Positions 27,913 through 63,178 of a DNA stretch of 64,000 nucleotides are shown here, piece by piece; within the stretch, counting starts at the first letter, position 1; each line of letters opens with the position of its first letter. The stretch is from Owenia fusiformis (Eukaryota). The stretch is from NCBI GenBank assembly GCA_903813345.2, contig CAIIXF020000001.1:2790001-2854000 (forward strand), read 5' to 3'. The position numbers and the translations under genes were made by a program. Under the pieces are notes generated by a model, which saw nothing but the letters and a program-made list of their open reading frames with translations, was not told the origin of the DNA and searched no databases.

Positions 27913-28118
27913 CTGAAAAGTAAAAAAACAGGAATTGAAATTAAATCATGAAATTCATACTTGTAAAAAAATTATTATTTGCTACCATTGTATGTCAAGC
28001 ACTGTATTGTATGATACTGTTTTATTCAACTCATCAAAGAATATTAAGTATAATCAAGTAGTGCCATTGAAAATACAAGTCAAAATCGAACCTATATAAA
28101 CCATATAAAATATCCTAC

Positions 28119-28311
28119 CTGTAGCTCCACTTGACTCTTTGTACTCAGCTCCCCACATTGACACCTCGACCCCAGCCTCGGGAATGCTAGCACCCAAGTA
28201 GGCCTCCCCATAGAATGTAGAGTTCCTCGGCACCTCCTCTGGATACCACTCCCATGTGATTGGTCGCTTCTCACATTTTCTTGTTTTCATGTCAATGCGA
28301 TATTCAACATG
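28119..28311 (-). CDS. EPDR: Ependymin-related protein exon 4 (HVEYRIDMKTRKCEK...VPRNSTFYGEAYLG...VSMW...)
   Basis: ttccag|...G|gtagga, 193 nt, second conserved Cys and the PxxxTFxG..LG motif. Confidence 0.93.
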
Positions 28312-28683
28312 CTGGAAATTAGGACAGAATTCAGTTGAATCAGAATATCTGTTAAATAATATATTTCAAGATCCACAGTCAATATAAAATATGTACAACT
28401 AGGTCATCTCTAAGATACAAACATATAGTTCTGGTATTACTGAGAAAACCACAAATTTGTTACATTGTTCAAGGATTTATATTTAGAAAGTTATTTTGAT
28501 TTGTTGTTATTTGATATCTTTCCGATATCCTTTATGAAGATTGCTAGTATCAAGAGCTGCAAACAATTGAGAAATGATAGTGCTATTCAAAACAATGGGG
28601 ATCTTGACCACCCTGTTTCTACAATGTCAGAGCCTAGTACTTGTGCTAGATCATATGATTGAAAAGGGTTAAGCTTAACTCAC

Positions 28684-40132: not shown

Positions 40133-40556
40133 TATCTTGCCTAGTATTATATAGAGTTGTTCCTATAATCATTTGCCAATTTGTATGAGTTTTACATGTG
40201 ATAGCTTTACTCAGTTACTTATTGGATATTATCAAAATGATGTATTGTAATTGTATATAATTATTATAGAATGTTATTACATGCATCCATACGTGTCTGT
40301 ATCACGTTGTCTGCCATGCTGCATTGTGAAGAAAATCTGCCTTGTGTGCTATTACATTTAACTTATTTTTCTCATTCTCCAGCAAGCAATCTTTGTTAAG
40401 GGATATATACAAGCCCATGGTATGGGAATCAAGCCCATAGCCTCTAGGCTACACATGATCTTTTCGCAAGAGATCCCATTATCTTTACCAGTTTAACTTA
40501 ACCCTATGGCTTGATTTGTCATTTGAGCTCATTTGAGAATTGTTTTTGTTTTTCAG

Positions 40557-40676
40557 ATCCCGTCCATTGTGCGTTCCATGTCGCACCAAGACATCTTGTC
40601 TCTTCAACAACAGACCCAACTTCTATGGGACTCTTACTTTGCTTCCATTGACAGCATTGTCGACACAACTTTGGAG
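40557..40676 (+). CDS. EXT1: Exostosin-1 exon 4 (IPSIVRSMSHQDILSLQQQTQLLWDSYFASIDSIVDTTLE)
   Basis: tttcag|...GAG|gtaaga, 120 nt. Confidence 0.95.
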
Positions 40677-41970
40677 GTAAGATACCATGAGATCCTTAGT
40701 CTCAGACAACTAGGATGATATATTTATCTTCCCTCTAAAATTAAGCTAGGAGTAGTAATAGGAGAATTAAATACAATCTGGATCTTCTGAGAGGGATATT
40801 AACTCTTAATAAAGGATGAAGATCCTACATTGTTTTATTTTCCTGACACTAAATAGGTGACACTTGAATAAATGAACAAATACAATATACATAGTATACT
40901 CTCATCTTACATAAAATCATTTTAATGAGTTGATCTTTCAATGACCCAAGATTACTACTTTTTGAGTTGAATTTGAGGTTAATAAAACAATGAATTATTT
41001 CCCAGTAAGTTAAGAATAAACATGAGTTTACAAATCGAAATTCGCTGATATTGTCCAAGGAAAGACAATGCCATGCACCCTATTATTTTTGTTTTCAAAC
41101 CTGGTATCATTATGGCCCAGCACACAATATGATGGCATTTGTGAGTGACTATGATCTCCATATACATTCCTGGTCCCAAATGTTTATTCATTCATATTTC
41201 AAGAAATCAAGTAGGTGCTGAATAAGCGCCAAATTACATTGTCTCACAGTGTCAATAGTTTAAATCTTTGTTTATAAATATATCTGGAGTTTATTTAATG
41301 ACAATTTATTACAACACATTAAGTTCTAAAAGAGGTGTATATTTGTAGTCAGTCTAATTGGCTCTAATCCTTTATTTAAGGAGTTATACAGGTAACAACC
41401 AAAACCAGTAAAAGTAAACATTGACACAAGTCGTGTTTTATGATAGGTGAAGAGTCTAAAGGTTGGCTCACCCTTTAAAGGAATGTTATTCTCCAGATTG
41501 TCTGTAGATAGCAATGTGCAGTTAGCTGTATAATATACAAAGAATTGTATCCCTTTAAAGAGCCACTTAAGCAAAAAATGTAGGCAGTCAGTGTGTTTGT
41601 TTGCTTTATGTGAGTGTATCCAACTTCTGTAATTATTCACTTTGTCAGTTTATATTCTCATATTATAGATATATATTGACTTATTGGGTCGTGCCAACTT
41701 ATTTGTAAGTAAGAAAATTATTTGCGCACTTTGGGGAAATGTCATTTTCTCATACGCATAATAACAGAAGAATCAATCTTAGATATTTCTGAGATAAAAC
41801 ATTGTTTTTAATGTTAATGTCAAACTAAGATGTCGAAATGACAAATGTTTTTTGGATCCTGTTTTCTATATGCTCTATGTCCCCTTGGGGTTTGAATTTG
41901 GGTTTTTGTTGACTGTGCTGAGTTGTGAACAAGTTGTTGAGTTGTGAACATGTAATGTTATGAATACATA

Positions 41971-42193
41971 CACTCCCCTCCATAAGTCTGGCAACTGAAA
42001 GTCCCCCTATTAATCACTCTTCAAAACCTATTTATGTTTTAAGACTGTGATTTAAAAAGAATCATCAGATTTACCATAATTATGAATATCCAAATAATTG
42101 CAATTAATGAGCAAAATTAAGATTCAAACATTGCCAGGCTTTTATATGCAATCCAATGAAAACCTCTGGTTGCCAAACTTATGGAGGGGAGTG
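41971..42193. mobile_element. Tc1/mariner-type MITE
   Basis: 25-bp TIR CACTCCCCTCCATAAGTYTGGCAAC (1 mismatch) with TA TSD on both sides. Confidence 0.85.
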
Positions 42194-42435
42194 TACATAC
42201 TTGGCCATTTGGATGCACAGACCATATTTCCTTATATTATGTAATTATGATGTGTATCTAAGATACTACTGTGCTTTATAAATGGATATTGGGAACTACT
42301 TACTCAATATATATTTTTGAATATGATATTTGATGTCCCTACAGGGTGTCCAATAACTTGAGAAAACACTGTTCATAATACAGAATATTCACTAAGTTTA
42401 TATTACAATGATTTATTGATGATTTGTTTTTTCAG

Positions 42436-42684
42436 ATACTGAAAGATCGTGTCATGCTCCACCGTCGATCCAGCCTCGTTTGGAATAGTGTACCAGGTGG
42501 ACTGTCTTCCGTGCCAGACTATTCTGACAATATACAGAGTCTGCCTTTTTATTACCACTATCTGGGCCGGGAACCTGGATTGAAGTTTACTGCTGTAGTA
42601 TATGCTACAAATTGTATTTTGCTCACTAGTTCACCTTTGTATAAACTACTAAAAAATATAGGCAAATCACAGTCATTAGATAGG
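42436..42684 (+). CDS. EXT1: Exostosin-1 exon 5 (ILKDRV...WNSVPGGL...PFYY...FTAVV...SLDR)
   Basis: tttcag|...AGG|gtgagt, 249 nt; linker and start of the GT64 domain. Confidence 0.95.
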
Positions 42685-43292
42685 GTGAGTGGGTGCTAAG
42701 AGACTGATGGTGTTCAAATGTTAACAATTTGAGAAAAAAATTTGTTATGGTAACCTCCCTATTCCTTCCATAATTTGAAACTAGATTTACTATTCACATT
42801 CTAGCATCGAAAATTAATATTTTGCGCTATCCGAATTGCCATTTCCCTCTCCTATACATTGGAATTAATTTCAATCTTCCATATTGGTGGGCATATGAAC
42901 ACCATCGCCAACTGGTCAACAGAGTTTGATTCAGAATGTCTGATAAAAGTAACTCAACAGTACATGTTGATCACAACTCTAGAATGATGATAATATACTA
43001 TTGTATACATATCCACTGTAAGAGCCTGTTTCTCAACTATATTGCAGCTCTCAATTTGTCAAATTCAATATCAGCCATTGGTTCATGAATTTGTGATAGG
43101 CAATTAAATTTGAATCCGCCTTATCTGTATGTTTCACCAGATGTTTGAAAATAAATAAATGAAATGAAATGAAAATGAATTTCACGCATGGTTCTCCAAA
43201 ATATAGTGCTTTCTTAATCAAGGGGAGGTATTAAATAATGAAGATCTATTAGACCATGATTGTTTATTAAACTTTTCTGTGGTCTGTTTCAG

Positions 43293-43400
43293 ATAATTAT
43301 TATATGGCACTGCGATACCCCTCCACCCCCTTGGAATCGCTGGCCATTGGAGTCCAGTACGCCAATACATATTGTACAGAGTCATAAGTCATATGTACGG
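43293..43400 (+). CDS. EXT1: Exostosin-1 exon 6 (IIIIWHCDTPPPPWNRWP...)
   Basis: tttcag|...CGG|gtgagt, 108 nt. Confidence 0.9.
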
Positions 43401-43451
43401 GTGAGTACACATTGTAAATATATTGATATGAACAAAGTGTATAATATACTT

Positions 43452-43951
43452 TATACCACTCTAAGTCCAATTACAGTTGTATAACATGGGTCTATAACAA
43501 CGATATACAGTGGAGAGTGGTATATCGTCATCGTATACAACTCCTCCGTATACACTCCAGCGTATACCACTGTAGAAGTGCATTCTGGGAACTAATGAAT
43601 AAAAAAAATCATGAAAATTTTCATGATTTCCTAGAATCAAGTGACGTCATAAATGGTGCCGGCATGATTTGCTAGAATCAAGCCACGTCATAAATGGTTC
43701 GAGATCAACATCAGCATTATTGAGTTGGCTATGGGATATTTTTATGGTTTTTATTGTCGATTGTGTTCGAATCAACTGTACATTGAACTTAGAGTGGCAT
43801 AATAAGATTATATAATGGTTCATTCTGTATATCGTGCATTTTATACTCTTGTGAGAATATACTATATTCACTCGTTCGCTACGCTCACTTGTGAATATAT
43901 AACATACTCACTCGAGTATAAACACGATATACAGAAAGAACCATTATATAA
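43452..43951. mobile_element. Non-autonomous element: ~30-bp inverted repeats (about 43452-43802) followed by a ~144-bp palindrome (43808-43951)
   Basis: TTATACCACTCTAAGTCCAATTACAGTTG pairs with CAACTGTACATTGAACTTAGAGTGGCATAA. The palindrome arms of about 65 bp surround TCGCTACGCTC. Confidence 0.6.
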
Positions 43952-44173
43952 CCTCATAGTATATAAGAGATGGTATATAGTGTACAATGTAAGATATGTC
44001 AAAATATGCTCTATGTGCTCTATTCAATAATAGTTCTTTATTCCATAATTATTGGATATACCAATAATATTAACATTAATATAGTATTTGAAGACCAATC
44101 CCTCCTCTGCATAATCCTGGGATGGTATATTTTATATTCATCAGTTACAATATGTTTGTCATATTAATATCTA

Positions 44174-44351
44174 CAGTAAAACCTCTATATCAGAACACCT
44201 GTCTAATTTGAACACCCTTAAACACTTTTTCTCAGTCCCTAATTTATTATTTCCCATTGACTCACATGTTAAAAATTTGCGATATGAACACCTGCTAATC
44301 TGAACACTTTTGGCCAGTCCGATTGGTGTTCATATTAGACAGGTTTTACTG
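44174..44351. mobile_element. Family A Tc1/mariner-type MITE (well preserved)
   Basis: TA|CAGTAAAACCT...ACAGGTTTTACTG|TA. Confidence 0.8.
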
Positions 44352-45798
44352 TATTTTATATCTGCACTCTGCAGTAATACTTTAATGATGAACTATAATA
44401 CTTGAAGTCTGTGGGAACATACAATAAGTACTGTATTTGATAGTTCTCGGGGTAATTGATTAAACGCCTACTAAGTCTCATCTATAAACATTTATCCTAA
44501 TACGGCAGCACTGCCTGATAAGCTAGCTATGTAAATTATTACTAGTTGTTAGGTGCATTTTTGTTTTCTCCATTACATCTTATATATTCTACACGTATCC
44601 TGCTTTTTCACAATGTTTCTAAAAAATATTTGAATAGAATAGTTGAAATTCCGACATTGAATTGTAATTGAGGGGGTTAATTACATATGCCAACTATATG
44701 AATTCCCTCTCTTCTCACAATACGTTGTTTTACACAAGACACAAAAGCGCCATGATGTTTTATGTCTCGGCAGACAGCAACACGGTGAGGTGGGATGGGA
44801 GATTAATGTTATTATGATTCAACAGATAACAGTTTACAAACAAACCCAAAGTGTTGCTGTGCTAAACTTAGACCTGGTTTGTATTTTGGGAATTATAACT
44901 AAACTTATAGTGTTATATCATTCAAGGGATGTTGCCAAATTACCAAAATATACATTTACATAAAAACTTCATTATCAGAAATTAATAGGGTCGTTTGAAC
45001 CATTACTGCAACGTGGATATTGATTTTGGTCACAATGAAATCTTCTTTAGCTTTGTGTGTCTCTGCAGTCATTTGTTTCAATAATTAACTTTTACGACAC
45101 AATCGACACATTTTGGATAATTGTATATGTTCCCTTGTGCTATCGTTGTAAATAGGCAGGCAATGGTTTGAAATAGATAGGATGTTCAGGTGTACCTGAC
45201 TGGTGCACTGTATCTATGCTACACCTGGTATAACAGTGGGTTGATATAGCTACCTACTAACAGGTCCCTAAAATCAGAGCATCTAGCTTGTTATAATGCT
45301 ATAATATAGAACATTCAGGGGGGATACAAAACCTCAGGATTTCTCTGCAGCACTTCATCTCTGTGTATACATTGTGATAGTCATCACATCTTTCTGTTTC
45401 AAACTATCAAACATCTTGATAAAAGCCTGTGATCTTTTACTATGCTTTGATACATTTAAGGCAAAGTTTAGAGAACATGATGAGTGAGTGTCTGCAGCAG
45501 GTATTACCATGGAGATCATATAACAAAGAGGGGTGTAGATATACTTTTAATTAGCTGAGAGGTGTGGAACTGAATCCATGAGGTTAAAGGGGAATAATCT
45601 TGTATCACCATCAGATCAGTCATGTTCAGATTGCAATATTTCTCAAGTTGACAACATGTTTGTCTCAGATGATCACATGGTGGTTAGGCTATACCTTGAT
45701 TAAATCTAGGAGTTGTATGGGAAACCTCACCTGCTCCCCTCTTATGCCTTCCTACTCTGGGAGGTGTCCGTCATTTCAGAAAAATATTGGTATGACTA

Positions 45799-47240
45799 CA
45801 GTAAAACCTGTATATTCAAACACCTGTCTTATCTGAACACCTCTCAATGTGAACACTTTTTATTATCCCATCGAACGAAGTTCGGAGGGATATAGGGAAC
45901 GCCTCCGTCCGTCCGTACGTACGTACGTCCGTCCGTCCGTCTGTCCGTCCGTCCGTCCGTCCGGGCAATAACTCAAATACCGTTGGCCCGATTTTGTTCA
46001 TATTTCGTACACATATACCCTATGGGGGTAGAAGTTCTGCTCGAAAGCCGATTTTCAAAATGGCCGCTCATTTCAAAATGGCGGCCATTTTAGTGACGAT
46101 TTTACAGTAATTTAGGTGCAATATGTAAAACTGTAATAGCAATATGTTTTAAATGTAAAAAAATTATAAAGGACATTAATAATGCTACAAATGTAGATAT
46201 TAAAAAGCACATGGCAGCCATCTTGAAAAATGGCGGCCTTTACTCGTCATTTTACGATTTTTGCTGTAACTCAAAAAATAGTGGAGCGATTTTGTTCATA
46301 TTTGGTGTGTGAATACTATAAGCATTGCACACTGTCTAAAGACACTTTTGGTAGAAGGTGGCCATTTTGAAAAATGGCCACCATTTTAACGTATTTTACT
46401 ATAACTCGAAAAGTAGTGGAGCGATTTTGTTCATATTTGGTATGTGAATACTATAAGCATGGCACACTGTCCTATGACACTTTTGGTAGAAGGCGGCCAT
46501 TTTGAAAACAATTTTGAAAAATGGCCGCCATTTTAATGTATTTTACATAACTCGAAAAGTAGTTGAGCGATTTTGTTCGTATTTGGTATGTGAATACTAT
46601 AAGCATGGCACACTGTCCTATGACACTTTTGGTAGAAGGTGGCCATTTTGAAAACAATTTTGAAAAATGGCCGCCATTTTAACGTATTTTACTAATACTC
46701 GAAAAGTAGTGGAGCGATTTTGTTCATATTTGGTATGTGAATACTATAAGCATGGAACACCGTCTATTTCTAATGACGCTTTTGGTAGAAGGTGGCCATT
46801 TTGAAAAATGGCTATTCTACTATAACTCGAAAAGTAGTGGAGTGATTTTGTTCATATTTGATATGTGAATACTTTAAGCATGGCACATTGTCTAATAAAA
46901 CTTTGAGGAGTAGTCGGCCATTTTGAAAAATGGCCACCATTTTTATGTGTGTTATTTTACAAGTACGTGTGCAATTTTTCAAAATATTTTAGAGGTGGCT
47001 ACTTAAAAGCATATTATTTCTTCTGATGACAACTTGGCTAGTGAGCAACCATTTTGAAAATGGTGGCTTTTCTGGTGTGTTGTTTTATGATATTTGCACT
47101 TCGTTTGTAAAAATGCCAGCCATTTCTGTTCGATGGGATTCGCTACGCTTTGGCATTGCCGTTGTTCTTGTTGGTCCCTGATCTCCCATTGACTAATATA
47201 TTGAGAAAACTATGTGAATACTTGCTAATCTGAACACTTC
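45799..47240. mobile_element. Family A MITE split by the Helentron-like insertion
   Basis: Left part CAGTAAAACCTGT...GAACACTTT (45799-45860) resumes as GGTCCC..CCCATTGACT..CTAATCTGAACAC from about 47173, collinear with the copy at 44174. Confidence 0.7.
45861..47172 (+). mobile_element. Non-autonomous Helentron/DINE-1-like rolling-circle element with internal ~130-147-bp tandem core repeats
   Basis: Subterminal IR ATCCCATCGAAC (45865-45876) / GTTCGATGGGAT (47128-47139); 5' stem-loop; (GTCC)n/(GTAC)n microsatellite at about 45905-45962; cores at about 46266, 46401, 46547, 46694 and 46822; 3' hairpin GGCATTGCC; T-rich ends, no TSD. Confidence 0.85.
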
Positions 47241-47290
47241 AGATTCATCCTTAGTAGGTATGCAAGGGTAATAAGGACTTCAACAACCTT

Positions 47291-47365
47291 AGAATGGTCC
47301 ATCCCTGAGTGAGCCCCAGAATGGCCCATCCCTTAGTGAACCCCAGAATGGTCCATCCCTTAGTG
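47291..47365. repeat. ~26-27-bp tandem repeat x3 (AGAATGGTCCATCCCTTAGTGAACCCC)
   Basis: Three units visible. Confidence 0.8.
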
Positions 47366-48399
47366 ATGTTGCCAGCCCCAAAGGATAACAAAGCCTAGAT
47401 TAACACTTCTAAAACTAAACCACCCAAAGTTTACATAACATAAAATAATAACATTGTCTGCAATTGTCATTAAAGAAGAAAAAGACAAAACACATAGGAA
47501 ATAAAATTACAAGTATACACTCTAAAACAATGTGCAATTAGAGGTTATCATACTTATCATAATAATGTCAGTTTGACAATTTATATTGATTGATATCATA
47601 CGGTTGTGTCTGATGTTATGTTTTCTTTTGATGCAGTTCAGTTTCACAGGGGATTCTGTTATTAATACGCACTTATTTGTACAAGAAAAAATGTTGCTCT
47701 GACATTCCATGAAGGAACACACACAGTGACTCTATTCTCTTCAAGGTCAAATTGCCCTTCTCTTGAGACTAAATATTACCCTTGTATCTCAAAAAACATC
47801 ATACTTAAAGTTGTTTGTACTTAATTAAACGTTAATTCCAAAAGATCTTTGCCCTAGAAGGATGTACTTATGTGATATCTTATTCTAGTGTTTTCAAGCT
47901 CTTGTGTCTGTCTGAAACCAGGTAAAACAGTCTGAACCTCAGGTGACCTGAGAATCAGAGAAGCCACTTTATTTTTGAAGTCAAGTTGATTTTGAATTGA
48001 TTTGCAAGAACTCGTACATCAGCATTATTGTGGTAAGACACCCAGGCACCCCTAGTTCTCCGTGACTTCTGGTCCCAAAGCGATTTCAATCATCGGTGTA
48101 ACTTTTTTATCTTGTAATACTGTTGTATTGTGTTTATAATTGAAATGTAATATCCAGTTAAACTTACATTGGGCTTGGGACACTGTATTTGCTGTAATTG
48201 GAGGTGCCAAATATCCTGCCAAATATAGATGGCGTACTATGACGGTTTGGAGCCTTGGACATTTAGAACTAGAAATGCTCATTTTGAAGACTCTGGTTGA
48301 TATTTCTGAGATGGCACATTCACTGCTTTTTCTGTAATTTTCCATAGATTTCTTTAAAAAGATATTAAAGAAGGAGGTTTTGATTATTACTAAACATAT

Positions 48400-49040
48400 C
48401 TCCCTGGTGATGGCGCTGTGCATATTGGTATCATTGAATGTTTCAGCATGTGTATTGGTAGAGTTGTTTCAAGATGTATTAAATCCATCTAAATTAGCTC
48501 TCATTTACTCAATCTTCATAGAATATCTTAAAGCATGTTGGTGACAAGCTTTTTGGCAGATAAGTTTTGGATGTAGGATGTGGTAGCCAGTGTTATTTCA
48601 GTCTTTGTGGAAATTCTTATTTCTGTAATTTGATGCCTCGCAGAATTTGCGATCAGTTGAACTTTGTGGTGATCTGTTGAAAGATACCTCATGTGGTTCC
48701 CATACTCACAGGGAGTAAAGAAAACATCACATCCAGTAAATATTACGTGATATCATTAAATAGAAATTGGCATTATCTGGAATTCTTGCAACTCATTCAG
48801 TTCATTTATAAAAAAGTTAGAAAGGTCATGAGAGAGTGGCTGTGGCATCCACTGTTTAGACTATCATTTGTCTTCTTCTATAGGCTGCTGGGAATCATTT
48901 CACGATTGTTATTTTTCTCATCACATGACTGTTCAGTAACGGGAAAGCACCGATGCCTCGCAACCAAAGATGTCCTAGCAAAATTCAGATTCTTATTAGT
49001 TAGGTTAGGGCTTATTAGGGTTTTCTTCGGCCATCTTCGT
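48400..49040 (-). pseudogene. Possible decayed intronless TRIM/RBCC-like pseudogene in EXT1 intron 6
   Basis: AAGATGGCCGAAG start-like context at about 49035. Minus-strand fragments LSNFFINELNE (post-RING-like) and TGCDVFFTPCEYGNHMRYLSTDHHKVQLI (B-box-like), with many stops and frameshifts. Confidence 0.35.
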
Positions 49041-51119
49041 TTTCAGTCACCCATTCAGTAACATTCCAAATAAGATTCAAAATTCTAAATGATCGTATAG
49101 ATTTAATAAATTCATTTCGTTTTTATTATTTCCAACTATAATACCTTCTATTGACCCTTAATCATGTCAGCCTCTTTGACATATGGGTGACAAGAGGTTT
49201 TTACATGTGTATGGCTGTAGTACCTTCAATTGTACAATCTGATTTGTTAAGTGATCCATCTCGCATGAATTGATTACATGCTGATTGGCAATACGTGGAA
49301 TGGCTTTCCTACTTTGACTATCAATCCATTGCACAATTAGAGTGGAAATTAGCATCAAATCTAGCTGATCAGTAGTAATTCTCTCTCTGAATGACATCTA
49401 AATGCGTTAGACTTGATGAATGGGGTAGACGTATATTTTAAGTTCCAGTAATTACAGGGCATAAAGAAAACAGATATTCATTTAACATGATGTTAGATTA
49501 ACATTTAAAGGCCATTTGTGCCAAGGTATTGGATTTACAAGTTGAAATTAGATTTTTCCGTTTCATTGTGACTCTGAAAGTGTCCAATTGGAGTTTCACC
49601 TGATTTCAATAGAATTACACAGTTCCTTGAATTTTTATTTTCATTTAGTAGGATATTGTACATTTTAAAGAAAGATTATTGTTCATGGAATTTCTTGATA
49701 TTTTATCAGTTTGATTCAAGATAGATGGAAATGATTTTCTTCCTCCTCCTTAGGTCAAGCCGACTTGTGGTTATCTCTAACACATACCTTAGATCATGTT
49801 CTAACAGCCTCAGCATCATTTAAGGACCATTTACACATGTTCATAGGCAAACATAGCTCAAGTCTGTGTTATATTGGACCACAAAGAATAAGCTGTACTG
49901 CTTCAACTTCCTGTCAAAAGGTGACGAAAAGTTAATCTTTGCCTAGTATGATATGTTATTTAACAGATCTTTATATATTCCTTGTTGTTTTGGTTAGTTG
50001 TTTAAACTTGGAATAAACACTTATTTTCAACAAGTTTGCACAAGAATTTAAAAGACAAACATTATGTCTAATCTTTGAAACCTCAAGTTACTCATATCAT
50101 CAGTTATATTAATTAAGGAGGAGATTAAACATGAATGAGTTTTCACTTTGCATCAGAAAATACTTGATATTTGTGAAATATAACAAGTAGTCGTCTATAG
50201 ACCAATGAGAACATGTAGCCATCTATAGGCCATTCAGGTAATAAGTAGTCATTTATGGACCAATCAGATAGCAAGTTACTTACTATCTTTGGCCAAATTA
50301 GATAACATGTGACCACCTATAGACCAATCAAATTAAAGGGACACATTTATTATACGCATCAATGAAAAAATAATATTTAAAGTTGTTGTTAAACTTTTCT
50401 GATAGCAATTGCAATATCATATATAGATACTAGAAAAAACTTCTTTTTATCTTAACAACTATGATATTAGATGATCTTAGCTACCCAATCTTACACTTTA
50501 TACCAATGAATTACTTAATCCTAAATTAGCATGTACATAATATCCATAATATGCAATTTTCCACTTTAACTGCCTACAATTAGGTAACAAATTACTGATT
50601 CAAAAGTCAATATCAATCAAATACAGGATATTACTTTTTGCAACTACATGTACGTTAATCCAGTTCTGGTTGATGGTATCAACTATAATAGCTAACTACC
50701 CTTTGGTGAAAATAGCATGATTTTGTTTCACATGCATCCAGTTCAGAGCCAAAGTAGAGGGGTGATATTTTTGAAAAGCTTTAAGAGAATTACAAGACAA
50801 TATGGAAAATATATCTAGGTTAAGATGACACGAGCACAATTTGACTGTATTTGTTGACCATTTGTTGTCAACATTTAAAAGTGTTTAGTGATGCCATGAT
50901 CTTATTTGGCATTACACTAAACTAAGGTCAAAGTGTGCTTTTTACGACAAATATATGCAATTTTTTTGTTGCGTTGACGTCGTTGTGTACTAAGTTAAGG
51001 TTCAAAGCGCTCATCTCTTTGGCGTTATTCATATTCACAATAGTGGATGTGAACTGAATGTCATGTATATACCAGTTTCGTTTTATTATTTAGAAAATCA
51101 GTGCCAATTTTATTTTAAG

Positions 51120-51731
51120 ATAGTACTTATTGTATGTTTCAGACAATCACTGCCAAATTTATTTTACTGTAGTTCTAGGTTTCAGATAATAAGTATCATA
51201 CAAATTGTATAATAGTACTTATTGAATATTTCAGACAATTTGTATAATAGTATTATTGAATATTTCATACAATTTGTATAATAGTACTTATTGAATATTT
51301 CATACAATTGCATAATAGTGCTTATCACATGTTTCAGACAATCAGTGCCAGATCTATTGTATGATAGTACTTATTGTATATTTCAGACATCAGTGCCAGA
51401 TCTATTGTAAAATAGTACTTATTGTATGTTTCAGACAATCAGTGCCAGAGCTATTGTATGATAGTACTTATTGTATGTTTCAGATAATCAGTGCCAGATC
51501 TATTGTATGATAGTACTTATTGTATGTTTCAGACAATCAGTGCCAGATCTATTGTATGATAGTAGTTATTGTATGTTTCAGACAATCAGTGCCAGATCTA
51601 TTGTATAATAGTACTTATTGTATGTTTCAGACAATCAGTGCCAGATCTATTGTATAATAGTACTTATTGTATGTTTCAGACAATCAGTTGTATGATAGTA
51701 CTTATTGTATGTTTCAGACAATCAGTGCCAG
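51120..51731 (+). repeat. 49-bp tandem array composed of the EXT1 exon 7 3' splice site plus the first 14 exon nt
   Basis: Unit ATAGTACTTATTGTATGTTTCAG|ACAATCAGTGCCAG-ATCTATTGTATG. Acceptor-like AGs end at 51337, 51386, 51434, 51483, 51532, 51581, 51630, 51679 and 51717, with degenerate ones at 51142, 51185 and 51234. Confidence 0.95.
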
Positions 51732-51807
51732 GTTTATTCCCTACAAAGACATCCAGACAGAAGCAGTGCTGAGCCTGGATGAAGATGCCTTATTGACCAC
51801 AGATGAG
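51718..51807 (+). CDS. EXT1: Exostosin-1 exon 7 (TISARFIPYKDIQTEAVLSLDEDALLTTDE; GT64 DxD motif)
   Basis: tttcag|ACA...GAG|gtaggt, 90 nt. Only the last acceptor of the array gives an open frame. Confidence 0.93.
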
Positions 51808-52175
51808 GTAGGTGTCTTTACAGTAATACATGTGGCTAATATTCAAATGATTTTTATCAACCAAGTGTTGTATTGTTGTTAGCGCTGGTGGGTGTCATCA
51901 AAATTTCATGAAAAAACGCTTTAACTTCTGGTTTTGTTTTGGGCATGCTTTGTAAATAACTTAGTGACCATTTTGAGTTTTTGGATAAAAAGTGTGATAT
52001 TTATCATTATGTGCCTTGTTTTAATCATAATTTATTTAGCCCAGAAGGAACAGACTGCACGATTACATTTTGCCATACATGTCCTGGACTTTTAGATATA
52101 AAATTATAAGTTAGATCTCTTTAACGTGCTCATCATCTCATTACATCATGTCATTACATTATTGCTATGTTCCAG

Positions 52176-52336
52176 GTGGATTTTGCATTCTCTGTGTGGC
52201 GGGAGTTCCCAGAAAGGATTGTGGGATACCCGGGTCGCAACCACTACTGGAGTGATGCTCATGAGAGGTGGGCATACACATCAAAGTGGACCAATGATTA
52301 CTCCATGGTTCTCACAAGTGCTGCTTTTATACACAG
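52176..52336 (+). CDS. EXT1: Exostosin-1 exon 8 ([25 protein letters not shown]...[17 protein letters not shown])
   Basis: ttccag|...AG|gtttgt, 161 nt. Confidence 0.96.
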
Positions 52337-52361
52337 GTTTGTAGAAACCCAAAGATATATA

Positions 52362-52546
52362 CAGGGTGACACAAGAACAATGGAATCATCATGAATTTTA
52401 TTGTATAGAGTGTCACTGAATGATACAATCAGATTTTAAGAAATTATGTTTAATTTACATGTTAGGACTAACCTACACATGATAATTTAAGAAGATTCAG
52501 TCATAATTGAGAACGTTAAAAGTGTTGCATTTTTTGTGTCACCCTG
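52362..52546. mobile_element. Tc1/mariner-type MITE (TIR CAGGGTGACACAA)
   Basis: TA|CAGGGTGACACAA...TTGTGTCACCCTG|TA, 25 nt into EXT1 intron 8. Confidence 0.8.
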
Positions 52547-52979
52547 TATTACAGTTTTATTAGGAGTATTATTCTCTTTTTAATTCATAATCCAAGAGCA
52601 CTTTATGAGAGAATTTGCAGAGTTAAAATAGTTTGATAGTTCCTTACCCATCATAATCTCCATGGTAACAACAATGGATTATGGAATTGTTTCAGGTCTG
52701 AATATTCTGTACTCCAGCCTTATTGAAGAACAGCATAGAACTGCAGTTCTTTTTAGATTGATTTTATTGGTGATATTTAATGGTATACACTCAAAATGAA
52801 TTCTTTGGGAAGAGAGAATGAATAAAAATTGCATACTTTGTATTTGGTTCTTGTCTCCCAACACTTAATATAAAAAGAGCTGTTTGTATAAACATGTTTT
52901 ACTGTACCATTCTTTCTTATTCAAAGTTTGAAGATACTATGTGTACTGTAATAAAAAGGCAATCTTTGTTTATTTGCAG

Positions 52980-53337
52980 GTATTATTTGCATTACTATAG
53001 CAACTATACCAGTAAACTGCTGTTAAAGACTGTCAATCAACTCCACAATTGTGAAGACATTCTCATGAACTTTGTTGTTAGTCACCTGACCAAGCAACCG
53101 CCAATCAAAGTCACACAACGAAAACTTTACAAAGACTCCATGGCCCCAGGCCGAACGTCAAAATGGCTTGAGGCAGAGCATTTCAATCAACGGCAAATAT
53201 GTATGAATACATTTGTTGATGCCTTTGGTTACGTTCCATTGAAGCGCTCTAGCGCTCGCTTTGATCCACTTCTATATAAAGACCCTGTTGCAAATTTTAG
53301 AAAAAAGTACAAACAAATCGAAGCAGTGGTTTCCTGA
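52980..53337 (+). CDS. EXT1: Exostosin-1 exon 9, terminal (YYLHYY...NCEDILMNFVVS...PPIKVTQRK...HFNQRQICMNTF...FDPLLYKDPV...KKYKQIEAVVS*)
   Basis: ttgcag|G acceptor, EXT1 C-terminal motifs, tandem stops TGATAG. Confidence 0.96.
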
Positions 53338-55008
53338 TAGAGTGATTTCCGAGTAAAATAGGAAACATATTCAGTCGAAGGAGTTCTCGGTAGCCAATCA
53401 GTAGTCAGCATCGATGGATAGGAGCCATTCAGCTGAAAAGCTATTCAGTTTTGTACACAGACACAAAAATAGGGAGTTAGTTCATTTTAGTTCATTTTAT
53501 TTGAGTCATTTATTGTTGCAGTGCTTAAGACTGTAAATGTGTAGCTATAACTCTTCAGTTCACTATTATTATCATTGGAATCTCATCTCATGTATTGCTC
53601 ATAAATAAGTCATCAATTTCACAAAGTAAATTGAAAGAATTGTAATTTAAATGCACAATATATGTTGACAAACAAATCATATTGCTGATTGTATTTATTC
53701 AAAGTTTAGACTTGGAATTGCTTTTCATTATGTAAAAATTGTATATTTATGCAACTGTATTCACAGAAATATAGCTAAATGAAAATGAAATATTAAAAGC
53801 TAGATTTGTGCAGAAAGTGCCTCAAAATGTGGCTGCCAATTTCGAAATCATTGCTATTTGAAATAATAAAGTTGTTACATATTTGTTGTTTATATTATTG
53901 ACTTACAGGAACAAGTTTGAATATTTATAGATTGTAAACAAGTGAAATATTCATGAAATGGCCCCCTGAAATTATTACCTATTTGGCAGTTTGTATGAAA
54001 TGAAAACTTGATGTATCATTTGGTAGTTTTATTTCAATATGCAACATTAAGCCATGGCCACTTGACATGAGTTTTTGTGACTCGTCCTTGTGTACAGTTG
54101 CATATTTTAGCTGAGATGAAATTCCAAAGTCATTCTTTTCTTTTCAATGGTGCTTCAGATGCACACAAGCACCATTGAATAATTAACTTTAAAATTACAC
54201 ACTTGATAAATGGAAACGATAATTATGATAGCGGATAGATATATATTATAAAACCATTGCAGTATTTTTAACAAAATGATATTCATGTAGTACTGTAGTT
54301 ATGTATTTACTGTACATTGGTGTCTCCTTTCATAATCAAGTCGCTTTTGTGCCATTTCTGGTTAAATTAATTCCAAGGTTAACTTACATATAACACTATA
54401 TCTGGCCAAGATAAATCATTATACCATATTAGGACAGTATGAATCATATTAGGTCAGTAATGACCAAATAAGGTAAACTTGCATCACATTTTGTACCATA
54501 TTCTTACAAATAATACTATAGGTAGCTTCAATTCATTTAATAATGTAATGTTTTTTGATATATGTTTCACACAATTTTTAATAAATTATGTCTAGCTGTA
54601 AATTTTAATTGATATTATGAAATTTTTGAGATGTTACATGTACAATTAAATGATGATGAATTAATGATAGGGTAAAAAGATTCAAAAGAATGCATTTGCA
54701 AATTCTTTTAATCTTTTGTGTACAAGATAATTGTGTTTGGCCAACTTCTGACAAGTTTGGTATAATGACTAAACGCTTGTGGTCTTTTGGCATAAAGGCT
54801 TATTGTTTTATGGCTTAAATGCTTATGATCTTTATGCAAAAAGGCTTATGAGGAAAGATGATAGATATTCATTTTGCATGCTTTTACAAGAAAATAACAA
54901 AGAGAACATGAGGTCTTCAGTGTGTTTTTAATCCAACGCTTCATAGTCACATTTCCCCAGTCTATAACAGTGTGTAGTATTCTGGGTAAGTACAATTGTA
55001 CCATATTA

Positions 55009-59279: not shown

Positions 59280-60960
59280 CTAAAACATAGGATTCAGTAT
59301 TGCCCTAAAACACAGGATTCAAGACTGCTTTAAATCCAGATTGCTCTAAAACACAGGATTCAGGATTGCTCTTAGTCCAGATTGCTCTAAAACACAGGAT
59401 TCAGGATTGCTCTAAAACACAGGATTGCTCTGAATCTAGATAGAGGATTCAAGATTATTTAAAAGCAGATGATTCAGGATTACTCTAAATCCAGATTGAG
59501 GATTCAGGATTGCTCTAAATCCAGATTGAGGATTCAGGATTGCTCTAAAACACAGGACTGCTCTCTGAATCTAGATAGAGGATTCCAGATTATTTAAAAG
59601 CAGATGATTCAGGATTGCTCTAAATCCAGATTGAGGATTCAGGATTACTCTAAAACACAGGATTGAGGATTCAGGATTGCTCTAAAACACAGGACTGCTC
59701 TCTGAATCTAGATAGAGGATTCCAGATTATTTAAAAGCAGATTTAGGATTGCTCTAAATCCAGATTGAGGATTCAGGATTGCTCTAAATCCAGATTGAGG
59801 ATTCAGGATTGCTCTAAAACACAGGACTGCTCTCTGAATCTAGATAGAGGATTCCAGATTATTTAAAAGCAGATTTAGGATTGCTCTAAATCCAGATTGA
59901 GGATTCAGGATTGCTCTAAAACACAGGATTCAGGATTGCTCTAAAACACAGGACTGCTCTGAATCTAGATAGAGGATTCCAGATTATTTAAAAGCAGATG
60001 ATTCAGGATTGCTCTAAATCCAGATTGAGGATTCAGGATTGCTCTAAAACCAGATTGAGGATTCAGGATTACTCTAAATCCAGATTCAGGATTACTCTAA
60101 ATCCAGATTGAGGATTCAGAATTGCTCTAAATCCAGATTGAGGATTCAGGATTGCTCTAAATCCAGATTGAGGATTCAGGATTATTCTAAATCCAGATTG
60201 AGGATTCAGGATTGCTCTAAAACCAGATTGAGGATTGCTCTAAAACCAGATTGAGGATTCAGAATTGCTCTAAATCCAGATTGAGGATTCAGGATTGCTC
60301 TAAATCCAGATTGAGGATTCAGGATTATTCTAAATCCAGATTGAGGATTCAGGATTGCTCTAAAACCAGATTGAGGATTCAGGATTACTCTAAATCCAGA
60401 TTCAGGATTACTCTAAATCCAGATTGAGGATTCAGAATTGCTCTAAATCCAGATTGAGGATTCAGGATTGCTCTAAATCCAGATTGAGGATTCAGGATTA
60501 TTCTAAATCCAGATTGAGGATTCAGGATTGCTCTAAAACCAGATTGAGGATTCAGGATTGCTCTAAAACACAGGATTGAGGATTCAGGATTACTCTAAAT
60601 CCAGATTGAGGATTCAGGATTGCTCTACATCCAGATTGAGGATTCAGGATTATTCTAAATCCAGATTGAGGATTCAGGATTGCTCTAAAACACAGGATTG
60701 AGGATTCAGGATTACTCTAAATCCAGATTCAGGATTGCTCTAAAACACAGGATTGAGGATTCAGAATTGCTCTAAATCCAGATTGAGGATTCAGGATTGC
60801 TCTAAATCCAGATTGAGGATTCAGGATTATTCTAAATCCAGATTGAGGATTCAGGATTGCTCTAAAACCAGATTGAGGATTCAGGATTGCTCTAAAACAC
60901 AGGATTGAGGATTCAGGATTACTCTAAATCCAGATTGAGGATTCAGGATTGCTCTACATC
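59280..60960. repeat. ~1.7-kb minisatellite, 30-bp unit GGATTCAGGATTGCTCTAAATCCAGATTGA, with higher-order variants
   Basis: Dozens of near-identical units. The left part interleaves a GAATCTAGATAGAGGATTC.AGATTATTTAAAAGCAGAT variant block five times. Confidence 0.97.
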
Positions 60961-61017
60961 CACATCACACAAGAAGCTCAATGATTGCTAGCAACATATT
61001 TATTAAAAGCACATGTA

Positions 61018-61176
61018 CTAGAAGTTTTGTTGTCTTTTCTTCTTAGCTTCTATAGCGTCATGAATTGGTTGCCTCTTGGCATGATATCGTTTATGAAGTT
61101 CCTCAATCTCACGCTCCATTTCTGGATCTAGGCTTGCTATTCTTTGTTCTAACTCTTCTAAACTCATATTCGTAAT
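61018..61176 (-). CDS. STK3: Hippo/MST (STK3/STK4) kinase terminal exon, SARAH domain (ITNMSLEELEQRIASLDPEMEREIEELHKRYHAKRQPIHDAIEAKKKRQQNF*)
   Basis: ttttcag| acceptor; LDPxMERE IEEL..RY.AKRQPI.DA..AKK.RQQNF is the MST1/2/Hippo C-terminus; TAG at 61020-61018. Confidence 0.95.
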   Translation of the reverse strand: MTNMSLEELEQRIASLDPEMEREIEELHKRYHAKRQPIHDAIEAKKKRQQNF

Positions 61177-61394
61177 CTGAAAAAATGATAACTTATATTC
61201 AGCTAATTATAAAGTTTATGTTACATTTATTTTGTCAGTGATTAGGCAATATGAGAATTGAATTAATAATCGTTTTGATATGCATGGTTCAAAAGATTTG
61301 TATTATACAGATTTGTCTTATATTGTTTCTTAAATATTGTCTAGCATGTTTTCTCTTTAAAAGTACATCCATTTTTAGAGCTTGTGGCACTTAC

Positions 61395-61624
61395 AAAATC
61401 AAAGTCCCCTTCGATAAAATTCCTCTGAAATAAAGGTCCACTGGGGGGTAGGGCTTGCTTCTGTGGGGGAGGAGTAGGGGCTGGCTGGGGGGTACTGACT
61501 GGTGGAGAAGGTTGCACTGGTGGGGGTTGCACTGCTTGCTGGGGGGACTGTTCCCGTTCTTGCCTTTCAAAGTGGTCCAAATAAGCTGGGCGGTATTTGC
61601 TCTTTGCATTCTCTGTGTCATGTC
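61395..61624 (-). CDS. STK3: Hippo/MST kinase penultimate exon (..KYRPAYLDHFERQE..Pro/Gln-rich linker..EGDFDF)
   Basis: ttttag|GA...TTT|gtaagt, 230 nt; RPxF/YLxHF and GDFxF motifs precede SARAH. Kinase-domain exons were not found in the window. Confidence 0.9.
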
Positions 61625-63178
61625 CTAAAATATTTTATATATTGTTAAGTATGTTGTACATCAAAAAATAGTCTTATCATGGGCCTCCCAAAAATCCTAT
61701 GTTTAAAAGCACATACAGAGAATATATATAAGTGTATGTGAGTATATGTGTAAGTGAGTATGTGTGCTACTTCTGCAAAGAAAACAGCTATCTACAATAG
61801 ATGGCAGCAGCTGACTGTATTGAAATTACTAGGCATTGTCTGAAAATAATTATGGTATTCATAAATGGGGATTCCCCTAAAAATGTATAAAAGGTATAAT
61901 ATGATGTCATAAAATGTTTAATTGCTTGCAAATATTTCGATCCTCTTACAGTTTTTACACCTTATCTTCTGCTCTTTGATAAGCTCCTGCATTAGAATTA
62001 CAGTATACATGACAAATTAACTGTATTAACTATTAATACAGTATGAGATGTTCAAGTAAATATAAAGGCATAAGATCAACAACTACCAACAAAGAATGCA
62101 ATCAATAAATAAATTCCCTGACTATGCCCTAACGCCACAGATTTGACTGACACAATGTACAAAACACAAACACAATTCAGAATTGAGCCTACATGATATT
62201 ACAAAATACAGCCATGGATGTATGTTTCAAAGTTTATCATCTGTAGATAAAAAGCATGATGTAACACTTTCTTTTTAACTTATCTGGTATTAAATTTAAT
62301 AAACATAACATATTTAATATACAACTAGGCACGACACATTTTGCCTGTCAACTTTTGTATTGCAAAGATGGGGTTTCTTTCAGACCACAAATGGCATGCC
62401 TGCTACATGTACTTGCTCTGTCTTGCTTTAATTGTCATCACAGAGGCTCAAAGGTATGTATAATTTACTTTAACGGTTTAAAATGTGAATTATGGTGTCA
62501 TATTTGGATTAACCTTCAAAACAACTAGAACAAATAATGATGAAAAAAAATGTTAATGGATCCATGGATATTATACAGATTTGAACAAAAGAACAGAGCT
62601 CATTGGTCACTTAACCCTTTATACCTGAAACGAGAAACCCCACAAGCGCATTTCTATTTTTCAATTATTGAAAACTCATAAAAAAACAAAATGAAACTAG
62701 AACTTAACATCTGATATACTTTAAAAATCTTATAAATATAGGAACAAGTACTTGAAAATGATAAATGTTCAAATCAAATTACTCACTACTGGAATATTTG
62801 ACAATCTTTTTTGTACAAAGGTTATATTGTGATGTAAGCACAGTCAACTATCAAATATTCTATCAGAGCAACAATCCTATCACATAATTTTCTCTTGAAA
62901 TAAATAATAGCATCTGCAGATATCTCAACATTTTCCTGTTTAGCTATAGTTTCATTTGTTTCATAAAATATGAAAAGTTGCTAACATTTCAGCAAGTAAG
63001 CCAAAACTTTAAAAGTTTAATCAATTAAAATTTGTGTTTTAACTCATAACCTTAAACAATATTTCAGGTCCTTTCGACATTTAGATTTCATAAAAGAGCA
63101 GTTAAGAAACTATTGTAATAAAATTTTATTTGAAGAATAGGACTGGGGAGATCTAAAGCTTATTCTTCACGCTTCCTA

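Follow-up and report, generated by a model that had tools for sequence, protein, structure and literature searches.

Tandem repeats that lie over exon/intron boundaries are known from amphioxus, where they are called "mirages". They were first named at the amphioxus Adh3 gene (Canestro et al. 2002, as cited in PMC3087553) and, in the available portions of two reports, are described in Adh3, globin, troponin C, and PGBD5 (PMC3087553, PMC3902484). The globin mirages are those of BflGb6 and BflGb9 (PMC3087553), and troponin C and PGBD5 are treated in PMC3902484. Mirage units are 10-160 bp long and 81-100% alike, and the length of the repeats differs between haplotypes (PMC3087553, PMC3902484). 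The repeats copy splice signals, and many units contain AG/GT signals, yet splicing was regular by RT-PCR and is undisturbed according to the authors, as far as these portions of the reports go (PMC3087553, PMC3902484). A related idea, set out in the accessible part of PMC2891723, is intron gain by tandem duplication of proto-splice sites. In human BRCA1, a tandem duplication covers the boundary between intron 9 and exon 10. This pathogenic duplication, a single 2-kb copy with 1617 nt of exon in it, persists in the mRNA, according to the part of the report available (PMC11839443). In the literature searched, subscription journals aside, mirages were found in amphioxus only and no annelid case was found; an annelid mirage seems to be unreported there. 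No usable report of classical competition experiments with duplicated 3' splice sites was found in the same literature. Here, we describe a boundary-derived array in the EXT1 gene of an annelid and compare it with these systems.

The stretch of DNA analysed (the window) is 64,000 nt long and comes from the annelid Owenia fusiformis. It carries EXT1 on the + strand. When the peptide of exon 6 was compared with longer database proteins, P0001, a product of 727 aa named by its source as Owenia fusiformis, was the sole match among five candidates. All 727 of its residues are placed on nine exons in the window, 721 of them uniquely by exact 6-mers and the other six at exon boundaries. Pfam finds two domains in P0001, Exostosin_GT47 (PF03016, residues 92-374, E 1.2e-62) and Glyco_transf_64 (GT64; PF09258, residues 457-708, E 1.8e-86). 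The named relatives that score best are exostosin-1, 1a, and 1b (567 proteins with E <= 1e-10 among 702 candidates, of which 120 are listed). The gene is EXT1 (exostosin-1, with GT47 and GT64), on which the two domains and the best named relatives agree, as the first-pass annotation had proposed. Apart from P0001, the best relative among the matches listed is 60-61% identical. No other Owenia form of EXT1, whether alternative or transcript-derived, is present in the protein database among the 120 matches listed.

The exons around the array were placed by the P0001 mapping. Exon 6 (43293-43400, +) maps exactly, encodes residues 490-525, and ends in phase 0 (TAC CGG|gtgagt). Intron 6 (43401-51717, +) is 8317 nt long, with an abundant dispersed repeat at about 45860-47172 and the boundary-derived arrays at its 3' end. 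The authentic exon 7, the seventh of nine, is 90 nt long (51718-51807, +), encodes residues 526-555 (TISARFIPYKDIQTEAVLSLDEDALLTTDE), including the conserved SLDEDA motif of the GT64 domain, and ends at the donor GAG|gtaggt. Exon 8 (52176-52336, +) and exon 9 (52980-53337, +) follow; exon 9 is the last coding exon, with the stop codon at 53335-53337.

Other genes lie beside and within EXT1 in the window. Upstream, a trypsin-domain exon (38-370, +; PF00089, E 3.9e-12) forms the end of a serine protease gene. Within the 25-kb intron 1 of EXT1, an ependymin-domain exon is found on the opposite strand (28054-28365, -; PF00811, E 1.3e-14), and it is probably part of a nested gene. Downstream, a frame on the - strand (61018-61206) ends in the SARAH domain of Mst1 (PF11629, E 1.3e-23). 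A Hippo-type STK3/4-like kinase gene, convergent with EXT1, has its C-terminal exon here. A proline-rich frame upstream of the SARAH exon (61341-61634, -) has no Pfam match. Between EXT1 and the kinase gene, a satellite-like array (59299-60962) has a period of 30/60, about 27-54 copies, and TRF scores of up to 1582; its long open frames on both strands are artefacts of the repeat.

In O. fusiformis EXT1, the 3' end of intron 6 and the start of exon 7 are repeated head-to-tail. Tandem Repeats Finder (TRF) reports 9.1 copies of period 49 at 51307-51738, with 88% matches and a score of 668. It also calls an older 34-bp array (51196-51325, 3.8 copies) and a truncated 38-bp unit that abuts exon 7. 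In splice-site register, the 49-bp unit takes 28 nt from the end of the intron (GTATGATAGTACTTATTGTATGTTTCAG) and 21 nt from the start of exon 7 (ACAATCAGTGCCAGATCTATT). The unit straddles the host gene's own intron/exon boundary, as set by the P0001 mapping, and includes the splice signal. The first-pass annotation had recognized the repeat as a copy of the EXT1 exon 7 acceptor, and the P0001 mapping and the TRF period both bear this out. It had also divided the unit into intron end and exon start, which stands, but its exon part of 14 nt was too short: this part is 21 nt with two mismatches to exon 7 (+15 G>A and +17 T>C), and 14 nt is the perfectly matching portion.

Copies of different ages follow one another toward exon 7. 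The oldest, decayed boundary copies lie at 51085-51195 (+), and two AGs, at 51142 and 51185, survive in them. The parts derived from the exon (AATCAGTGCCAATTTTATT and ACAATCACTGCCAAATTTATT) resemble exon 7 beyond +14, out to about +27, further than the young units do. With these copies, the array begins near 51085, ahead of the interval 51120-51807 given in the first-pass annotation. A 34-bp sub-array of 3.8 copies (51196-51325, +), seen by TRF and in the sequence, is built of units with an internal 15-nt deletion. One of these retains CAG (AG end 51234), and three read CAT. The young 49-bp array (51307-51679, +) contains decoy AGs that end at 51337, 51386, 51434, 51483, 51532, 51581, 51630, and 51679. 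It is followed by a truncated unit of 38 nt (51680-51717, +) without 11 nt of the exon-like part. Its last 28 nt form the genuine end of the intron and contain the real AG (51716-51717) as well as a pyrimidine-rich tract and a branch-point-like TACTTAT. The earlier count of eight acceptors plus older degenerate ones ahead of the real site at 51717 is thus correct, since AG ends are found from 51337 to 51679 and older AG-bearing copies end at 51142, 51185, and 51234.

The copies are confined to this boundary. The boundary 20-mer TTTCAGACAATCAGTGCCAG occurs eight times in the window with up to two mismatches, always inside 51137-51731, and has 0 occurrences in 100 shuffles. Extra copies were found for only one of the 16 internal EXT1 splice sites, the exon 7 acceptor. 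In 21 TRF rows there are 10 distinct tandem arrays, which together occupy about 5.6% of the window, so an array on one of 16 splice sites is geometrically unsurprising. An exact-match scan of metagenome contigs with a 24-nt decoy-specific word returned 0 stretches.

The array, or its length, might be a product of mis-assembly. Assemblies are prone to error in tandem repeats, none of the contigs listed from the DNA run X1 spans the array, and a mis-assembled mirage in a draft genome is noted for an amphioxus globin in the available part of PMC3087553. However, the units differ at diagnostic positions, and the 1-nt deletion in one unit, the truncated 38-nt unit, and the separate 34-bp sub-array are unlike the products of collapse or expansion. 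The span of the array is only about 0.65 kb, and words from X1 are present in 30 of 30 bins, including those of the array. Furthermore, a published O. fusiformis assembly, which may not be the source of the window, had long reads with an N50 above 25 kb, according to the part of the report available (PMC9977687). An artefact is therefore hardly credible as the origin of the array.

The direction of copying can be read from exon 7. Its first residues, TISARF, align with a conserved block, [TV][IM]S[SAQN]RF, which is followed by an invariant-looking SLDED motif in 14 bilaterian EXT1 proteins, hand-picked for taxonomic spread from the 120 listed. Since the start of exon 7 lies in a conserved block, its coding sequence is old; the exon was the template and the array the copy. 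The change +15 G>A is present in seven of the seven full-length young units and +17 T>C in six of them; the exception, at 51435, retains T at +17 and shows G at +16. The real exon 7, which must encode Arg-Phe, carries neither the +15 nor the +17 change. The young expansion thus began from an upstream copy that had already diverged. The amplification most likely started at a short internal repeat, TATTGTATG, of which each unit has two, by unequal exchange or by slippage in replication. A single hot spot appears to have been amplified at least three times, leading from the decayed copies to the 34-bp derivative array and then to the young 49-bp array.

A donor-like word lies in the same part of exon 7. 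The donor of exon 8 is CAG|GTTTGT (52336/52337), and exon 7 has a similar internal CAG|GTTTAT at 51731/51732. Of the seven full-length young units, six have CAG|ATCTAT in place of this look-alike, and the copy at 51435 has CAG|AGCTAT.

The decoys closely resemble the real acceptor at 51717/51718. The eight young decoy AGs upstream of it differ from the real site over -20..+3 by 4, 1, 0, 1, 0, 1, 0, and 0 letters, in order. When an old copy (51143) is included, five decoys are identical to the real site in this interval, the others being 51435, 51533, 51631, and 51680. Local splice-site score therefore cannot explain the choice of acceptor. Each unit has its own branch-point-like TACTTAT, pyrimidine tract, and AG, and the AGs of successive units are 38-49 nt apart. 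The identity of these five decoys and the complete set of signals in every unit favor one alternative in particular, namely that decoys capture much of the EXT1 pre-mRNA without regulation and divert it into nonsense-mediated decay (NMD). The allele would then be hypomorphic, with a strength that depends on copy number.

Splicing to any young decoy would lead to an early stop. Exon 6 (phase 0, 43400) joined to 51338, 51533, 51582, or 51631 is read as TISARSIV before a stop codon, and the same stop follows TISARAIV at 51435 and IISARSIV at 51484. The copy at 51387, which has the 1-nt deletion, gives TSVPDLL and a stop. Joining to 51680 shifts the frame, with a stop at 51770-51772. From all young decoys, translation would thus end within 7-30 codons, with two more exon junctions downstream of the stop. 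For a stop at such a position, NMD is expected. A hypothetical decoy product of about 533 aa would retain GT47 (92-374) and only the first 69 residues of GT64, and would lose the LDEDA motif encoded by exon 7. The first-pass annotation had read these frames largely correctly. Early stops for the decoys ending at 51337-51630 are found as it stated, although the peptide is not TISARSIV throughout; TISARAIV, IISARSIV, and TSVPDLL also occur. Its frameshift of the 51679 copy to the stop at 51770-51772 agrees with the translation of the joined sequence. Its product of about 533 aa, with GT47 and without the GT64 motif region, fits the domain limits of 92-374 and 457-708 and the position of LDEDA in exon 7.

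Three raw stranded RNA runs (X21, X22, and X23), chosen by species label, and the DNA run X1 were used for the region 40400-53500. EXT1 is expressed in these runs: exon 8 has 10-22 RNA reads, and the mean depth of the last bin is 17-23. Position 51747 in exon 7 is covered by 5 (X21), 13 (X22), and 9 (X23) reads, all with a synonymous A>G (AAA to AAG). In the bin that contains most of the young array (51325-51761), mean RNA depth is 0.58, 2.07, and 1.12 in X21, X22, and X23, and in the preceding bin (50888-51324) it is 0.24, 0, and 0. After the 44 exon letters in the former bin are removed at exon depths, about 459 letters remain over the 393-nt array, which is a summed depth of about 1.2. The corresponding value is 27 for exon 7 and, for seven intron bins free of repeats (47829-50887), about 0.8. 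RNA depth over the array is that of intron background, and bulk inclusion of array sequence does not occur in the three RNA runs. This bound is coarse: the sum of each decoy's fraction times its included length is at most about 17 nt. Within this limit, the 38-nt decoy could be used at a rate of up to about 45%, or the 87-nt decoy at up to about 20%, and steady-state depth is blind to RNA already degraded by NMD.

Annotated splicing gives a similar picture. The sole Owenia gene model among the 120 matches listed, P0001, joins SYVR to TISARFIPY, that is, 43400 to 51718, and uses the last acceptor. The published O. fusiformis annotation pipeline used RNA-seq junctions, according to the available part of its description (PMC9977687); the source of this junction in the gene model may be protein homology and not reads. 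Junction reads with an overhang of 14 nt or less fit most copies equally, and the array is a trap both for gene prediction and for the alignment of short-read junctions. RNA folding of 51300-51830 gave a minimum free energy of -133.8 kcal/mol (z = -1.87); among 100 shuffles, 6 folded equally well or better. This fold is unremarkable and offers no argument that structure masks the decoys.

Two further observations were made in these reads. Exonic differences from the window at 51747, 52274, 52986, 53301, and 53319 are present in all or nearly all RNA reads of the three runs, and in the X1 DNA contig where covered. The sequenced individuals thus differ from the haplotype of the window. Dispersed repeats in the EXT1 introns (45860-47172, 43459-44332, and 41711-42584) have a summed word depth of about 2.5 million in DNA contigs, against about 70 in the flanks, and RNA depth of up to about 1580. 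The element at 45860-47172 has sharp ends (45859-45863 and 47172-47173) and an internal 146-bp tandem repeat of three copies (46364-46807), and most of its RNA reads are in the EXT1 sense.

Taken together, the array is probably a mirage minisatellite, that is, a local tandem amplification of a 49-bp piece of the intron 6/exon 7 boundary, which is near-neutral or slightly costly and no regulatory device. Since the copies sit upstream of the authentic exon 7, they merely lengthen intron 6. The spliceosome would mostly use the last acceptor. Among the acceptors, this one alone adjoins the real exon body, with purine-rich stretches (such as GAAGCAG and GATGAAGATG) and the exon 7 donor 90 nt downstream. 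Exon definition would then account for the success of the last acceptor; like splice-site proximity, it is a general idea about such choices. Transcripts spliced to a decoy would meet an early stop and be expected to be removed by NMD, and any such leak would presumably be noise. Low-level use of decoys with removal of the products by NMD may occur. As its fallback, the first-pass annotation had offered a neutral expansion in which the acceptor nearest the donor is used, and it is this fallback that the gene model, the RNA depth, and the amphioxus precedent favor. Against the near-neutral reading stands the human BRCA1 duplicate, whose retention in mRNA indicates, in the part of the report available, that upstream duplicated acceptors are usable when enough exon is copied (PMC11839443).

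Most of the confidence left beside the near-neutral reading goes to the substantial, unregulated leak into NMD described above, which we nevertheless consider unlikely. EXT1 is dosage-sensitive in other animals, and this counts against a heavy loss of its transcripts. The depth bound is loose for the two nearest decoys, as such a leak would require, but RNA depth over the array is at intron background and the gene model uses the last site. Furthermore, amphioxus mirages are reported without aberrant mRNAs in the available portions of PMC3087553 and PMC3902484.

A regulated use of the decoys is far less probable. The first-pass annotation had suggested a poison-splicing/NMD rheostat for heparan sulfate synthesis, tunable by repeat length, or an EXT1 of about 533 aa with GT47 only. 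The reading frames are as it claimed, and the truncated product would retain GT47 (92-374). However, the rheostat finds no support in the use of the last acceptor by the gene model, in array RNA at intron background, or in the amphioxus mirages, which are reported without aberrant mRNAs. The functional short form is likewise unsupported, since the sole Owenia protein in the database among the matches listed uses the last acceptor and no truncated isoform is found there. In addition, the older copies show the decay expected without selection (in the 34-bp units, AT has replaced AG), and the fold of the array RNA (z = -1.87, 6 of 100 shuffles) is unremarkable. We give either form of this suggestion very little credence.

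The exon part of the unit could also serve as an in-frame micro-exon cassette. The 21 nt ACA ATC AGT GCC AGA TCT ATT encode TISARSI without a stop and are followed by a weak donor, GTATGA, so that heptapeptides would be inserted. The following intron would be at least 77 nt to the AG of a later unit, or 66 nt to the real AG. The length of 21 nt is divisible by 3, and GTATGA shares the G at +5 with eight of eight real EXT1 donors. However, with T at both -1 and +4, this donor falls below all eight real ones in strength, and two units have GTATAA and one GTAAAA instead. A 21-nt exon is also hard to define, and no isoform bearing an insert is present in the protein database among the matches listed. 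Such cassettes are about as improbable as a mis-assembled array.

A broader functional reading joins these possibilities: the array could be a length-variable dial on EXT1 output, through copy-number-dependent capture by decoys and NMD, or its TISARSI micro-exons could be spliced in before the GT64 catalytic motif. Taken as a whole, this is improbable. If the dial worked through decoy capture, heparan sulfate synthesis would vary between individuals with array length. If either the dial or the micro-exon reading were true, the array would be the first mirage minisatellite to act as a functional splicing element.

The near-neutral reading places the EXT1 array closest to the amphioxus mirages. 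As in amphioxus, head-to-tail units span an intron/exon boundary with its splice signal, the authentic copy lies at the edge of the cluster, and the units are 81-100% alike. Regular splicing, indicated by RT-PCR in amphioxus, is probably unaffected in EXT1, where the gene model uses 51718 and RNA depth over the array is at intron background. Unit sizes are also comparable, with 10-72 bp in amphioxus Adh3, 150-160 bp in the globins, and 49 bp in the EXT1 array. Length polymorphism and RT-PCR support are features of the amphioxus mirages. The EXT1 array differs in its annelid host, in its host gene, and in having three generations of copies, including the 34-bp derivative array. The annelid case suggests that mirages occur more widely in marine invertebrates whose genomes are polymorphic and rich in repeats.

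As in intron gain by tandem duplication, a duplication that bears a splice signal is absorbed in an intron and the coding sequence is unchanged. The EXT1 array, however, makes no new intron; instead, the existing intron grows by 49 nt per copy. The array also shares with NAGNAG or short-range tandem acceptors, and with poison sites of alternative splicing coupled to NMD, the presence of AGs upstream of the productive one whose use leads to a stop. The array does not belong to the former class, since its AGs are 38-49 nt apart, each with its own TACTTAT and pyrimidine tract, and not 3-12 nt apart behind one branch point. For the latter, the stops are confirmed, but decoy use is not seen at the level of RNA depth, no sign of conservation or regulation was found, and the next best protein is 60-61% identical among the matches listed.

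The human BRCA1 duplication is similar in that a copied intron end and exon start place two acceptors in a row, with a premature stop if the upstream one is used. However, the EXT1 units copy only 21 nt of exon, and RNA from the array is at background. This contrast would fit a decision by exon context, which the 21-nt decoy stubs do not have. The EXT1 locus is a natural competition experiment with nine acceptors in a row. Since five decoys are identical to the real site, letter for letter, at -20..+3, the cause of the last acceptor's success lies outside the classical 3' splice-site signal.
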